From a virus: DNA of 64,000 nucleotides. Shown here piece by piece: positions 36,550-38,037 of the stretch (position 1 is the first letter of the stretch; each line of letters starts with the position of its first letter). The notes under the pieces are model-generated. The model was given only the letters and a program-made list of their open reading frames with translations. It did no database searches and was not told the DNA's origin. Made by a program: the position numbers and the translations under genes. The stretch is taken from positions 1 to 64,000 of the IMG/VR virus record IMGVR_UViG_3300029777_000247; one strand, written 5' to 3'.

Positions 36550-38019
36550 TTATCCTCTTTGCTTTTCTGGAAAATGCTTCTTAGTTACTGCAACGCAAAA
36601 GCTATCAATTTCTGACCCCCAAATGGCAGTACCTTCACCATATGTGCTTTGAAATACTAACGGAAAGCCGCCGATCCCATCGAAGAGGCTACCAAGAGTA
36701 GGATTCTCACCGATATACGGTTTCATCTTCTGAAAAATCCAATACCATTGCGGTAATGCGATTGAATTGCCGAGTGCCTTATAACGAACTGCGTCAGAAG
36801 TTTTATGCTTCTTTTCGTTCTCATCAATCCAGTCACCGATATCTGTCCATCCATCAGGGAACCCCTGAAGCCGTTCATCCTCCAAAGGAGTCAAACGGCG
36901 AACAATCCATCGTAGATTCTTCGTTTCTTTTTCTGTAATCAGGTCAGTAGCGTCCTTGTAGTCACGAGATTTCATCGTACTAGCCTGTTTACTTTCCTTG
37001 TATTCACCAATGCGTTGCATCGCAAAGGCTTTCTTCTCAATGACCAGTGGCATATTATTGCCACCAGTTCCCCACTGAGCAGTACAAGTCGGACTTGTAT
37101 CACTCAGCTGAGTGTATCGAGCGTCTTGACTGTGGCTCTCAAACACCACCGGCGAAATCTTTTGTTTTAAATTATGTAAAGAGGGATTTTCTGCCAAGCA
37201 AATCAGCGTCTGGTCTTGTAACGTAGAAATCGTTGCGCTCAATTCAGTTTGAACCAGAGCGCCTTTACCGCCACCTTCACATCCAGAACGGATTTTTAGA
37301 GTGTAGGCTGCAGGTTCTGTGCATCGAGTCGAAGTCTCTCGATGGTCTGACTCCAATACTCGTCCAATTCCTTCTCTTCCAGACCTTCTTGTTCCTTCAC
37401 TTTCTGCACCACCTGTGACAGAGTTCCTGGATTCCACCATTCGATCATATCCAGCAACGCTTGCTTCAGGAGTTCGGGCAAAGGTTTTCCACGCCGGGAT
37501 GCTCTCACAAGAATCCCCTGACATGCTCGTGCGCTCAAATAGAATTTCTGAGGCACGTTGTCCTCCAAAATCCATGACAAGCGCGATTCTCTGGCGACGC
37601 TGGGCGACTCCCCAGTATTTAGCGTCGAACAATCTCCATGCAATAGACCATCCATTACCGGAAATCGCTCCAGATTTTGCCCACTTCCCGTTCTTCCCTG
37701 AAGGTCGAGGAATTGAAACGTCTGGCTCGACAATGCGTGCAAATCTTTCCAACACACATCTGAAGTCTTCACCTTTGCTTGAGCTGAAAGCTCCTCTGAC
37801 ATTTTCCCAGATTGCGAATTTTGGATATTCTCCATTAGTGGCCTCCCTCATTTCTGTAATCACACGAATCATTTCAAGGAACAATCCAGAGCGTTCACCA
37901 GCCAAACCTTCACGTTTACCGGCCTGACTCAAATCTTGGCATGGACTGCCTCCTGTGATACAGGAAACCGGTTCAATCTGCCACCCATGAAGTTGTGTAA
38001 TATCTCCGTAATGCTTCAG
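36550..38019 (-). CDS. DNA (cytosine-5)-methyltransferase with circularly permuted motif order; start codon uncertain (CTG 38019 or TTG 37932)
   Basis: Motif order III GDITQ, IV PCQDLSQAGKR, VI ENVRG, VIII QRRQRIALV, TRD with SPTCTA...GG, IX RLTPLEDERLQGFPDGW, X GNSIALP, then at the C-terminus I LFDGIGGF and II SEID; GC-rich relative to neighbours. Confidence 0.75.
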   Translation of the reverse strand: MKHYGDITQLHGWQIEPVSCITGGSPCQDLSQAGKREGLAGERSGLFLEMIRVITEMREATNGEYPKFAIWENVRGAFSSSKGEDFRCVLERFARIVEPDVSIPRPSGKNGKWAKSGAISGNGWSIAWRLFDAKYWGVAQRRQRIALVMDFGGQRASEILFERTSMSGDSCESIPAWKTFARTPEASVAGYDRMVESRNSVTGGAESEGTRRSGREGIGRVLESDHRETSTRCTEPAAYTLKIRSGCEGGGKGALVQTELSATISTLQDQTLICLAENPSLHNLKQKISPVVFESHSQDARYTQLSDTSPTCTAQWGTGGNNMPLVIEKKAFAMQRIGEYKESKQASTMKSRDYKDATDLITEKETKNLRWIVRRLTPLEDERLQGFPDGWTDIGDWIDENEKKHKTSDAVRYKALGNSIALPQWYWIFQKMKPYIGENPTLGSLFDGIGGFPLVFQSTYGEGTAIWGSEIDSFCVAVTKKHFPEKQRG

Positions 38020-38037
38020 TTTTCATTCCTCCTTTTC

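Follow-up and report, generated by a model that had tools for sequence, protein, structure and literature searches.

A phage cytosine-5 DNA methyltransferase permuted between motifs II and III, with a conserved reading frame nested in its gene

The window, a 64,000-nt stretch of viral DNA (positions 1 to 64,000 of IMG/VR record IMGVR_UViG_3300029777_000247), carries on its minus strand a gene for a cytosine-5 (C5) DNA methyltransferase, whose frame we call frame A. An array of tRNA genes precedes it, and the motifs expected of the enzyme lie along the frame as follows.

38163..39576, minus strand: array of eight tRNA genes, directly upstream of the methyltransferase gene and on the same strand, a layout repeated in related loci
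36550..38019, minus strand: coding sequence of the permuted C5 DNA methyltransferase (frame A), about 489 aa from the proposed CTG start to a TAA stop at 36552..36550
37906..37959, minus strand: motif IV, ITGGSPCQDLSQAGKREG, containing the catalytic Cys
37783..37818, minus strand: motif VI, FAIWENVRGAFS
37567..37653, minus strand: motifs VII-VIII, GWSIAWRLFDAKYWGVAQRRQRIALVMDF, a stretch also read in frame B
37243..37311, minus strand: start of the target-recognition region (TRD), AAYTLKIRSGCEGGGKGALVQTE, where constraint on frame A resumes
36844..36912, minus strand: motif IX, RWIVRRLTPLEDERLQGFPDGWT
36724..36786, minus strand: motif X, RYKALGNSIALPQWYWIFQKM
36697..36732, minus strand: permutation junction, QKMKPYIGENPT, where the old C-terminal helix is joined to the old N-terminus
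36658..36696, minus strand: motif I with the AdoMet loop, now near the C-terminus, LGSLFDGIGGFPL, in the part that aligns to HhaI 16-59
36565..36627, minus strand: motif II and the new C-terminus, AIWGSEIDSFCVAVTKKHFPE

Translated from 38040 to 36550, the minus strand reads, after a TGA, KLKHYGDITQL..GGSPCQDLS..IWENVRG..QRRQRIALV..AAYTLKIRSGC..RRLTPLEDERLQGFPDGW..YKALGNSIALP..TLGSLFDGIGGFPL..WGSEIDSF..KKHFPEKQRG*. This translation and the alignments give the motif order III-IV-VI-VIII-TRD-IX-X-I-II, which is not the canonical linear order from I to X. The catalytic motifs are present (IV, GGSPCQ; VI, WENV; VIII, QRRQR), as are the AdoMet-binding motifs I (LFDGIGGF) and II (SEID, with its acidic residue), and motifs IX (RRLTPLEDERLQGFP) and X (GNSIALP) follow a variable TRD. 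Pfam PF00145 matched frame A with 121.8 bits (cut-off 22), in four separate stretches, and TIGR00675 with 119.4 bits (cut-off 100.65).

The position of the cut was resolved by comparison with M.HhaI. In a phmmer alignment, residues 445-490 of the window protein matched HhaI 16-59 and residues 4-90 matched HhaI 57-136. HhaI residue 57 corresponds to residue 4 of the query and HhaI residue 59 to its last residue, limits that indicate a clean cut without loss or duplication of residues. The PADLOC orphan-methyltransferase profile PDLC03715 behaved likewise: the first 181 residues of the window protein covered profile positions 48-226, and the C-terminal motifs I-II of a relative, P0302, fell on positions 5-48. 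The chain now begins between motifs II and III, with its native termini fused at the junction QKMKPYIGENPT, which is the topology termed type B; in Streptococcus phage Javan191, a relative of canonical order, the sequence compared with this junction, MSKELTLGSLFDG, stands at the N-terminus. It differs from the topology of the M.BssHII group (type H), as the N-terminus directly precedes motif III and the TRD lies within the chain. Motif I occurs only once in the 64 kb, at 36658..36696, and tRNA genes lie upstream of the gene, which rules out an upstream exon carrying motifs I-II. Judged from the translation and these profile alignments, the permutation that places motifs I-II at the C-terminus is real and of type B. 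The initial annotation had proposed this arrangement and called it rare, and both statements hold, the challenge of an upstream exon included. It had also pointed to M.BssHII-type enzymes for comparison; the likeness extends to the fact of permutation but not to the cut site.

The start of the gene is unusual, and its elements are these.

38028..38032, minus strand: Shine-Dalgarno sequence GGAGG of the methyltransferase, 8 nt before the CTG and 1 nt before an out-of-frame ATG, kept in window-type loci
38017..38019, minus strand: CTG, proposed as the initiation codon; relatives have a homologous ATG or GTG here
37973..38026, minus strand: out-of-frame short ORF of 17 codons, from an ATG at 38026 to a TGA at 37975..37973; the ATG is conserved in window-type loci

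The oddity had been described from the sequence before and was found as described: the GGAGG, an ATG 1 nt further on in the wrong frame that runs 17 codons to a TGA, the CTG, and an alternative in-frame start at TTG 37932. Upstream of motif IV there is no ATG, GTG or TTG from which the frame could start, and gene callers begin the methyltransferase at TTG 37932, so that the catalytic Cys is lost. In bacteria, CTG initiates translation only very weakly. Nevertheless, the CTG AAG CAT TAC GGA GAT of the window aligns with GTG AAA CAT TAT GGA and ATG AAA CAC TTG GGC GAC in relatives, the CTG is invariant in a comparison of 80 related loci, and codons 1-20 of frame A already show frame-A periodicity in their diversity. 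The comparison favours what had been offered as one of two options, and the CTG at 38019 is most likely the translation start. We also considered, and rejected, a +1 slip of the ribosome on the A-run that follows the out-of-frame ATG: the four bases before the CTG vary between loci (AAAA, GAAA, AAGA, AAAC, AACT, GGAA) while the CTG is constant, so slippage on an A-run is not a conserved feature. A scan for sigma-70 consensus promoters upstream of the gene gave no match; by eye, a TATAAT stands at 38054..38049 and a weak hairpin at 38101..38088.

No cognate restriction endonuclease adjoins the gene, which is flanked by the tRNA genes upstream and by four ORFs of 74-94 aa without a nuclease match downstream, and its best PADLOC model is oMTase; it is, in this sense, an orphan. 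Type 1 and type 2 loci share a conserved upstream flank, and a tRNA-Met lies about 140 nt upstream of the methyltransferase in five of the six loci scanned from the related phages of about 130 kb. The GC content of the gene (0.464) exceeds that of the window (0.408), as the initial annotation had noticed, and lies at the 96th percentile. Its conclusion that the gene is foreign and recently acquired is not supported, because GC3 (0.38-0.41) is at the genome level: the excess sits in codon positions 1 and 2, and the dual-coding segment (0.507) and the tRNA array next to the gene (0.508) account for part of the visible rise. The fixed site after tRNA-Met and the large sequence diversity at the locus (pS up to 0.41) also argue against a recent arrival.

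The permuted layout is widespread. Over 100 related phages and prophages of the gut have it: it occurs in all of the best 120 protein matches listed (87-99% identical), in 80 of 80 viral loci that are 65-99% identical, in the Faecalibacterium phage Toutatis, and in genomes of the isolates Gemmiger gallinarum, Faecalibacterium tardum and Acutalibacter. The unit-length arrangement is kept even between lineages that are only 52-66% identical. Enterobacter phage CobraSix was set aside as a permuted relative: it matched in tblastn with 99% query coverage, yet it has the canonical order and a C-terminal N6-methyltransferase domain.

Within the methyltransferase gene lies a second long frame on the same strand, frame B.

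37296..37835, minus strand: frame-B ORF, +1 relative to the methyltransferase and nested in its gene, 179 aa
37842..37847, minus strand: GGGAGG, which resembles a Shine-Dalgarno sequence and precedes the ATG of frame B by 6 nt, formed by the frame-A codons Met-Arg(AGG)-Glu
37434..37655, minus strand: conserved frame-B core, MDGLLHGDCSTLNTGESPSV..LSWILEDNVPQKFYLSARACQGILVRASRRGKPLPELLKQALLDMIEWW
37312..37542, minus strand: segment unconstrained in frame A (frame-A pN/pS 0.72-1.45)

This overlapping frame had been reported as a complication for defining the TRD, and it goes beyond an ambiguity of annotation, being a conserved coding frame. In 37312..37542, diversity is 0.21-0.25 at frame-A position 1 against 0.03-0.05 at position 3, and the most variable position, frame-A position 1, is the wobble position of frame B. 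The codon-position pattern switches to frame B in frame-A codons 161-200 and returns at codon 241, which is where frame B stops. Where frame A is unconstrained, frame-B pN/pS is 0.27-0.40. On both measures, frame B is the selected frame in its segment. Its first 60 or so residues have a pN/pS above 1 and are not conserved as protein; the core, which overlaps motif VIII and the linker after it, carries the conservation. Profile and structure-sequence searches, including Pfam, PADLOC and PDB sequences, matched frame B to no known family, so that any role given to it is a guess. AlphaFold2 on frame B alone reached a pLDDT of 57.6 and was confident only for two helices, 102-115 and 121-134, which form a helical hairpin. 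The idea that the core is the segment usually following motif VIII in classical enzymes, suggested by an apparent resemblance, is not supported: the frame-B profile finds no C5-methyltransferase among PDB sequences and Pfam gives the core no coverage.

What kind of system do these features describe? We think it probable that the locus encodes a functional orphan phage C5-methyltransferase, permuted by a cut between motifs II and III, with a second coding sequence nested in the +1 frame. Translation would begin at the CTG at 38019, 8 nt after the GGAGG, at the residue where relatives have ATG or GTG in (M/V)KH(L/Y)GD. The chain would then run from the catalytic motifs IV, VI and VIII through the target-recognition region to motif IX and helix X, from which about ten residues (KPYIGENP) would lead to strand 1, the AdoMet loop (motif I) and motif II, ending in ..KKHFPE. 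As the N- and C-termini adjoin in canonical C5-methyltransferases, fold and chemistry should stay unchanged, the Cys attacking C6 before AdoMet donates its methyl group. By methylating the phage DNA, the enzyme would protect it from host restriction. The arrangement probably arose by tandem duplication and in-frame fusion, after which both ends were trimmed to unit length. Frame B would be translated separately, from GGGAGG-N6-ATG, into a 179-aa product whose N-terminal part is free of constraint and whose core is conserved, basic and helical; this product may act with or on the methyltransferase. Here both the enzymatic activity with its CTG initiation and the translation and role of frame B are what we infer from sequence comparison.

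Relatives of the window gene would allow a different division of labour. In Faecalibacterium phages, tracts of G7, G8 or G9 lie inside the methyltransferase gene and their length sets the reading frame; two such tracts flank the dual-coding cassette and would determine which frames are joined. In the window, the first of these sites lacks a run and the second has only A5. In ORF1 of Toutatis the N-terminal half is joined to the frame-B core, and in P0337 and P0312 the N-terminal half, the frame-B core and TRD-IX-X-I-II form a single ORF. Relatives such as L111/P0302 are split: an ORF2 of 548-598 aa, with the architecture B domain-TRD-IX-X-I-II, overlaps an ORF1 that holds motifs III-VIII. Many lineages (62-100% identical) retain this ORF2, the isolate F. 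tardum among them, and the fragments 62-279 and 280-61 of the engineered permutant cp62M.MpeI complement each other. The active enzyme might thus be a two-chain complex in which the frame-B product serves as a subunit or docking module, an extreme version of M.AquI. However, frame A in the window is a single uninterrupted chain and so formally needs no partner, the split forms may be phase-OFF states of the poly-G switches, and the AlphaFold2 model of the ORF2-type protein of P0302 failed (pLDDT 26.6, unusable). We regard the two-chain complex as a tentative alternative.

Frame B is not confined to these phages. Its peptide occurs in the +1 frame of methyltransferase genes in 132 phage records, and its profile matches 4400 protein clusters; most of the 150 matches listed fall at the N-terminus or close to it. 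In 49 of 53 loci from bacterial genomes, the distance of the frame-A motif VIII from the frame-B anchor is -58 or -61 nt (once -115); in the remaining four the search pattern found no motif VIII. The nested peptide has this fixed offset from motif VIII in C5-methyltransferases of many bacterial phyla, and also in dmt of phage P1, where the frame-B ATG stands at 66728, in the +1 frame of dmt, and opens the predicted product MQLTTNG..GILRRGEKRRKSLP. By these sequence comparisons, the nested frame belongs to the whole methyltransferase subfamily and not to its permuted members alone.

Such conservation could be a shadow of the constraint on the methyltransferase and of codon bias, with no second product. 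The first 60 residues of frame B do mirror motif VI, its ATG and Shine-Dalgarno element are made of conserved frame-A residues (EMR..NG), and it has no known domain and a poor structure model. Past motif VIII, however, amino-acid identity is higher in frame B than in frame A (0.74 against 0.42, and in a second pair 0.47 against 0.19; nulls from synonymous shuffling 0.23 and 0.15), and 41 of 45 non-redundant loci, most of them retrieved with frame-B patterns, are free of stops in frame B over 132 codons where synonymous shuffling predicts 4.1. The frame-B ATG is conserved after a GAGG, in which the rare AGG is used for the Arg in 34 of 47 contexts compared with 10.7% of Arg codons elsewhere (p ~3e-23). 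With the shift of the most variable codon position to the frame-B wobble position, these observations leave the shadow improbable. Frame B has the marks of an overprinted gene, namely an open frame beyond chance, purifying selection, and a start with its own Shine-Dalgarno element.

We also consider it unlikely that frame B is reached by a +1 ribosomal frameshift, giving a truncated protein in which the frame-B core is fused to the N-terminal half of the enzyme, or by a double shift that places the frame-B core in the enzyme. Natural single ORFs with these joins exist (Toutatis ORF1; P0337 and P0312), and the first 60 or so residues of frame B, which are not conserved as protein, would fit this. 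Yet those joins arise from changes in genomic poly-G length and not from recoding, and there is no conserved slippery site between motif VI and the frame-B core, either in the window or in the family. Frame B is moreover open for about 95 codons upstream of the core, beginning at the conserved Shine-Dalgarno-ATG, which a shift near the core would not need, and Pfam no longer matches motif VIII in products whose motifs VII-VIII are replaced by the frame-B core.

Finally, the methyltransferase gene might be a pseudogene left to decay after a tandem duplication, open by chance and yielding no active enzyme. The lack of a conventional start upstream of motif IV and the callers' TTG start that drops the catalytic Cys would suit this, as would 21 loci from this phage group in which a TAG and frameshift directly follow the catalytic Cys, so that catalysis may be dispensable or regulated in the lineage. 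No suppressor or unusual tRNA accounts for this TAG: tRNA sets are essentially alike with and without the insertion, and two of its carriers have no tRNAs at all. At the HNH insertion of locus L038, an Rfam search for an underlying group I intron gave no match. Single-base homopolymer indels in some IMG/VR loci, including L087 and L091, are perhaps sequencing errors and were not relied upon. The methyltransferase frame is nonetheless under purifying selection over its whole length, with pN/pS of 0.13 at the N-terminus, 0.07 in the TRD, 0.08 in IX-X and 0.17 in the relocated motifs I-II, and with pS up to 0.41. As all catalytic motifs are intact, the unit-length layout persists between distant lineages, and engineered enzymes of the same topology are active (PMC5944983), a pseudogene is improbable.

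The preferred reading, a functional type B enzyme with a nested second gene, has close parallels in the laboratory. Among circular permutants of C5-methyltransferases, cp62M.MpeI and cp58M.SssI, with a new N-terminus between motifs II and III, were the most active, and cp62M.MpeI reached the wild type level (PMC5944983). The known natural permutants begin in the variable region and have IX-X first, i.e. type H, and a 2018 survey of REBASE contained no natural permutant of type B (PMC5944983). The window enzyme shares with these two constructs, and with directed-evolution permutants of M.HaeIII, the order III..X-I-II and native termini joined directly or by a short linker; those are, however, laboratory versions of CG- or GGCC-specific enzymes, whereas the window gene is natural and widespread and has a long TRD. 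The M.BssHII group (M.Alw26I, M2.Eco31I, M.Esp3I, M2.BsaI) is also permuted and also explained by duplication and trimming, but its members are cut in the variable region, carry IX-X before I-VIII and belong to restriction-modification systems, in contrast to the II/III cut of an orphan phage methyltransferase. Plant DRM2, which is among the PDB sequence matches, is a further case of the C5-methyltransferase fold with rearranged motifs. In DRM enzymes, which are eukaryotic and RNA-directed, motifs VI-X precede I-V.

The nested frame has parallels of its own. P1 Dmt, gp12 of Vibrio phage CP-T1 and the Javan191 enzyme belong to the same subfamily and have a nested +1 frame at the same motif VIII offset, but unlike the window enzyme they keep the order I-X, and P1 Dmt is fused to a Dam domain. 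M.AquI is a two-subunit C5-methyltransferase; here the overlap spans about 130-145 codons and has a conserved peptide of its own, and the window copy is unsplit. In dcm-vsr of E. coli a second gene likewise uses the +1 frame of a C5-methyltransferase gene, and viral overprinted genes follow the same logic. The dcm-vsr overlap covers a few codons at the gene end, and Vsr is a known nuclease, whereas here a whole second ORF is embedded and frame B matches no known family. The Faecalibacterium phage relatives, with G7-G9 tracts inside the gene, recall phasevarion methyltransferases, except that two tracts flank a dual-coding cassette and offer several joins instead of an ON/OFF choice; the window copy has no tract. 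Literature searches on nested ORFs or frameshifts in C5-methyltransferases, or on phase-variable methyltransferases of Faecalibacterium phages, returned nothing relevant.

A wider reading, towards which we lean slightly, joins these points. Frame B would be a translated overprinted gene across phyla, never annotated there, and its product a partner, an alternative module or a regulator of the enzyme. In Faecalibacterium phages, the two poly-G tracts around the dual-coding cassette would toggle the locus among three states: the enzyme as one chain, the enzyme as two chains, and an isoform with the frame-B peptide in place of motifs VII-VIII. The subfamily, to which phage P1 Dmt belongs, extends to P1-like plasmids, which occur in about 9% of complete E. 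coli genomes, and the window gene would represent the first natural type B permutant.

The type B gene and its relatives suggest that nature uses the layout that engineers found to work best and that had been puzzlingly absent, and the canonical, permuted and split forms together offer a natural series in which to study the evolution of topology. The nested frame appears to be coding sequence of deep conservation, hidden in a gene family that is very common among phages and prophages, textbook phage P1 among them. Gene callers forbid embedded ORFs on the same strand, and frame B is therefore invisible to them. If it is translated, the annotation of thousands of genomes is incomplete, and mutating or redesigning these methyltransferases also alters a second protein. 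The poly-G-flanked cassette hints at a new kind of phase-variable control of phage DNA methylation in gut phages.

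The methyltransferase (MTase) ORF (38019..36550, minus strand) had the permuted order proposed in the initial annotation, with motifs I and II at its C-terminus. Translated after the TGA, it reads KLKHYGDITQL..GGSPCQDLS..IWENVRG..QRRQRIALV.., then a long variable region, then ..RRLTPLEDERLQGFPDGW..YKALGNSIALP..TLGSLFDGIGGFPL..WGSEIDSF..KKHFPEKQRG (stop). The Pfam profile PF00145 matched with 121.8 bits, split over four stretches. On alignment with M.HhaI, residues 445-490 corresponded to HhaI 16-59 and residues 4-90 to HhaI 57-136; on the PADLOC orphan-MTase profile, the first 181 residues matched positions 48-226, and the C-terminal motifs I-II of a relative matched positions 5-48. 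The MTase is thus circularly permuted at unit length, with its ends in the loop that separates motifs II and III. An upstream exon carrying motifs I-II, the counter-case named in the initial annotation, was excluded, as the MTase holds the only motif I found across the whole 64 kb.

The comparison suggested at the outset, with the M.BssHII group, holds for a permuted C5-MTase, but not for the cut site. All 27 of the 27 natural permuted C5-MTases in a REBASE survey by Slaska-Kiss et al. are of this group (type H), cut in the variable region so that IX-X come first (PMC5944983). The window MTase is instead cut between motifs II and III (type B). [quoted passage not shown] Their topology is that of the window gene, engineered there and natural here, and the feasibility of the permutation therefore rests on experiment. 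Within the literature searched, the natural occurrence of type B appears to be new. The evidence best fits a working orphan phage C5-MTase that is a natural type B permutant, its activity being predicted.

The same motif order was present in all 120 best protein matches listed (87-99% identical), in eighty viral contigs (65-99% identity), in the Faecalibacterium phages Toutatis and Lelie (~52% identity), and in prophage regions of isolate genomes of Gemmiger gallinarum, Faecalibacterium tardum and Acutalibacter. Synonymous diversity in the MTase frame (frame A) reached 0.41 across 80 loci, and pN/pS (Nei-Gojobori, 80 loci) was 0.13 in the N-terminal part, 0.07 in the recognition region, 0.08 in IX-X and 0.17 in the relocated I-II. 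By these codon comparisons the whole permuted chain is under purifying selection, and the permuted layout is neither an artefact nor a one-off.

The start of the gene is unusual, as first remarked: in every window-type locus the ATG one base past the Shine-Dalgarno (SD) sequence is out of frame. Alignment with the ATG and GTG of relatives favours a CTG.

Homologous MTase starts.
Type 1, window type: CTG AAG CAT TAC GGA GAT
Type 2, second allele of the ~130-kb phages: GTG AAA CAT TAT GGA
Type 3, Toutatis-like phages of ~58 kb: ATG AAA CAC TTG GGC GAC

The CTG lies 8 nt downstream of GGAGG in 47 of 47 window-type loci, and diversity at positions 1, 2 and 3 of codons 1-20 (0.04, 0.03 and 0.21) has the frame-A coding pattern. 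Because of the homologous starts, the conserved SD spacing and this periodicity, the CTG at 38019 is most likely the start codon, albeit a weak one. Slippage on the A-run was rejected, since the four bases from the out-of-frame ATG to the CTG vary among loci. In canonical relatives the residue homologous to the start is an internal Val or Met ahead of KH(L/Y)GD, which fits an origin of the permutant by duplication and then trimming.

The source is a large gut phage with related contigs of ~125-139 kb, and the window comes from its module for replication and nucleotide metabolism. The minus-strand order is NrdD, helicase-nuclease, DNA polymerase, RecJ-like nuclease, primase, DnaB, Sak4-like protein, MTase, eight tRNA genes and polynucleotide kinase/RNA ligase.

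Features around and within the MTase gene.
37835..37296, minus strand: frame B, 179 codons, +1 relative to the MTase
38163-39576: eight tRNA genes (Met, Gly x2, Leu x3, Gln, Pro), directly upstream of the MTase
39694-41913: polynucleotide kinase/phosphatase-RNA ligase, 739 aa, a tRNA-repair type enzyme, adjoining the tRNA array

Between tRNA-Met and the MTase are a weak hairpin with a T-run (38088-38101) and, after it, a TATAAT box (38049-38054), both conserved among related loci; upstream of the window MTase, no consensus -35 accompanies the box. Directly downstream, a 91-aa gene (36272-36547) starts 3 nt past the MTase stop. It belongs to PHROG families of unknown function and has 91% DNA identity to an otherwise different human-faecal phage contig.

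The GC content of the MTase is indeed raised (0.464 vs 0.408 for the window, 96th percentile). It peaks at 0.507 in the dual-coding segment, and the adjoining tRNA array (0.508) adds to the visible rise. The foreign composition and recent acquisition initially proposed were not supported: GC3 (0.38-0.41) equals the genome value, and the position after tRNA-Met is the same in related phages.

The long overlapping minus-strand frame (37296..37835) proved to have coding character. Across frame-A codons 161-200, diversity peaked at frame-A position 1 (0.21-0.25) and was least at position 3 (0.03-0.05), so the periodicity is that of frame B; it reverted to frame A at codon 241, the frame-B stop. 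In the dual-coding region pN/pS was 0.72-1.45 for frame A vs 0.27-0.40 for frame B, and GGGAGG lies 6 nt before the frame-B ATG. The ~58-kb Toutatis-like phages (L071-L084) and the ~130-kb phages share a near-identical segment (window 37296-37560, the end of the frame-B core and a 44-aa tail), the remaining gene being ~66% identical. This suggests that unrelated phages have recently recombined in this part of the gene.

Where a long protein starts with the frame-B domain, the same frame runs on into the recognition domain (TRD) and IX-X and, in permuted lineages, into I-II. Close relatives from Faecalibacterium phages and prophages show four joins.

Architectures counted among 99 loci.
Single-chain enzyme: 56
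ORF1 (catalytic half) overlapping ORF2 (frame B + TRD-IX-X-I-II): 16
N-terminal part in the third frame: 15
N-terminal part fused to the frame-B core: 9
Other or unresolved: 3

The ORF1/ORF2 split corresponds to fragments [62-279] and [280-61] of cp62M.MpeI, which complement experimentally, as do those of natural M.AquI (PMC5944983). In these relatives the join depends on two poly-G tracts, 6-10 bases long, on either side of the dual-coding cassette (L001, L071-L084, L111, L116, L123, L167-L246; homologous to window regions ~37700 and ~37330). At the first tract the N-terminal part is mostly in the MTase frame at G7, the third frame at G8 and frame B at G9, a few loci with G6, G8 or G10 departing from this. 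At the second, the C-terminal part is mostly joined to frame A at G7 and to frame B at G8 (once G9), again with exceptions. The pattern looks like phase variation, with fixed alleles or some assembly errors as alternatives. The window lineage has no poly-G tracts and reads as a stable single-chain enzyme with a stand-alone frame-B ORF.

A TAG with a frameshift recurs in relatives directly after the catalytic Cys codon (GGT TCA CCT TGT / TAGC / CAA GAT; homologous to window 37945..37940). The insertion is TAGC (4 nt) in 24 loci of four lineages and TAGGT (5 nt) in one. The carriers are 21 loci within L042-L073, all from one phage group, and L088, L090, L240 and L104. The 27-codon peptide upstream remains in frame, the remaining downstream ORF is under purifying selection, and no suppressor tRNA was found near these loci; the insertion could mean that the gene is a pseudogene, that catalysis is knocked out deliberately, or that the site is recoded by a +1 shift. 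In L038-L040 (frame A of 663-666 aa) and the proteins P0094 and P0113, an HNH_3 endonuclease ORF lies in frame within motif IX (LQGFP/GWTD; homologous to window ~36855), with no intron there by Rfam; in Mycobacterium phage Schatzie, the annotation of the homologous methylase places in it an intron that carries an HNH gene, boundaries undetermined. In one relative, P0111 (567 aa), a dUTPase domain (PF00692) follows motif I in the MTase frame, which reflects either a fusion or a join made during assembly.

Frame B extends well beyond permuted enzymes. A tblastn search found its peptide (..GDCSTLNTGESPSV..LSWILEDNVPQKFYLSARACQGILVRASRRGKPLPELLKQALLDMIEWW) in 132 phage records, where the DNA that encodes it was in every case either annotated as an MTase or not annotated. 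In the canonical-order MTase genes of Streptococcus phage Javan191 and Vibrio phage CP-T1, the peptide overlaps motif VIII in the +1 frame. Fifty-seven bacterial-genome loci were fetched (Bacillota, Bacteroidota, Proteobacteria, Cyanobacteria, Planctomycetota, Acidobacteriota, Actinomycetota and one archaeal MAG) and 53 analysed. Frame B was inside the MTase gene in 53/53, with motif VIII in frame A in 49/53, at -58 or -61 nt (once -115) from the frame-B anchor. Frame B was stop-free over 132 codons in 41 of 45 non-redundant loci, vs 4.1 expected from synonymous shuffling of frame-A codons, which also gave the null identities.

Identity after the frame-B anchor.
Codons 0..+17: frame B 0.74, frame A 0.42, frame-B null 0.23
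Codons +18..+35: frame B 0.47, frame A 0.19, frame-B null 0.15

About 93-97 codons upstream of the anchor is a conserved ATG after GAGG, which forms frame-A Met-Arg codons with the rare AGG in 34/47 contexts vs 10.7% elsewhere. The frame-B profile matched 4400 protein clusters; of the 150 matches listed, most lie at the N-terminus or close to it, and about a dozen lie further in, as joins. No match to frame B was found in Pfam, NCBIfam, PADLOC or PDB sequences, and AlphaFold2 gave only a basic helical hairpin, the N-terminal part being of low confidence.

The same +1 ORF is nested in phage P1 dmt.
NC_005856.1 66710-67201 (positions 2159-2650 of the P1 locus, L248): nested +1 ORF (..GILRRGEKRRKSLPPLLQMAL..), 163 codons stop to stop

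Its candidate ATG at 66728 is preceded by GTGGAG. The ORF is intact in 6/6 P1-like E. coli plasmids fetched, in three of which the match ends before the frame-B stop codon. The P1-type segment occurs in 493 of 5426 complete E. coli genomes, and the 12 RefSeq records listed from these have no annotation over it other than the MTase.

A start of its own is favoured for frame B over a frameshift, because the frame is open ~95 codons upstream of the conserved core, from a conserved SD-ATG, and because a conserved slippery site was looked for and none seen. On the sequence comparisons, the best-supported reading of frame B is an embedded second gene, inherited from canonical members of the MTase subfamily. 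One guess is that its protein is a partner or regulator of the enzyme; another is that it shields m5C-DNA against modification-dependent restriction.
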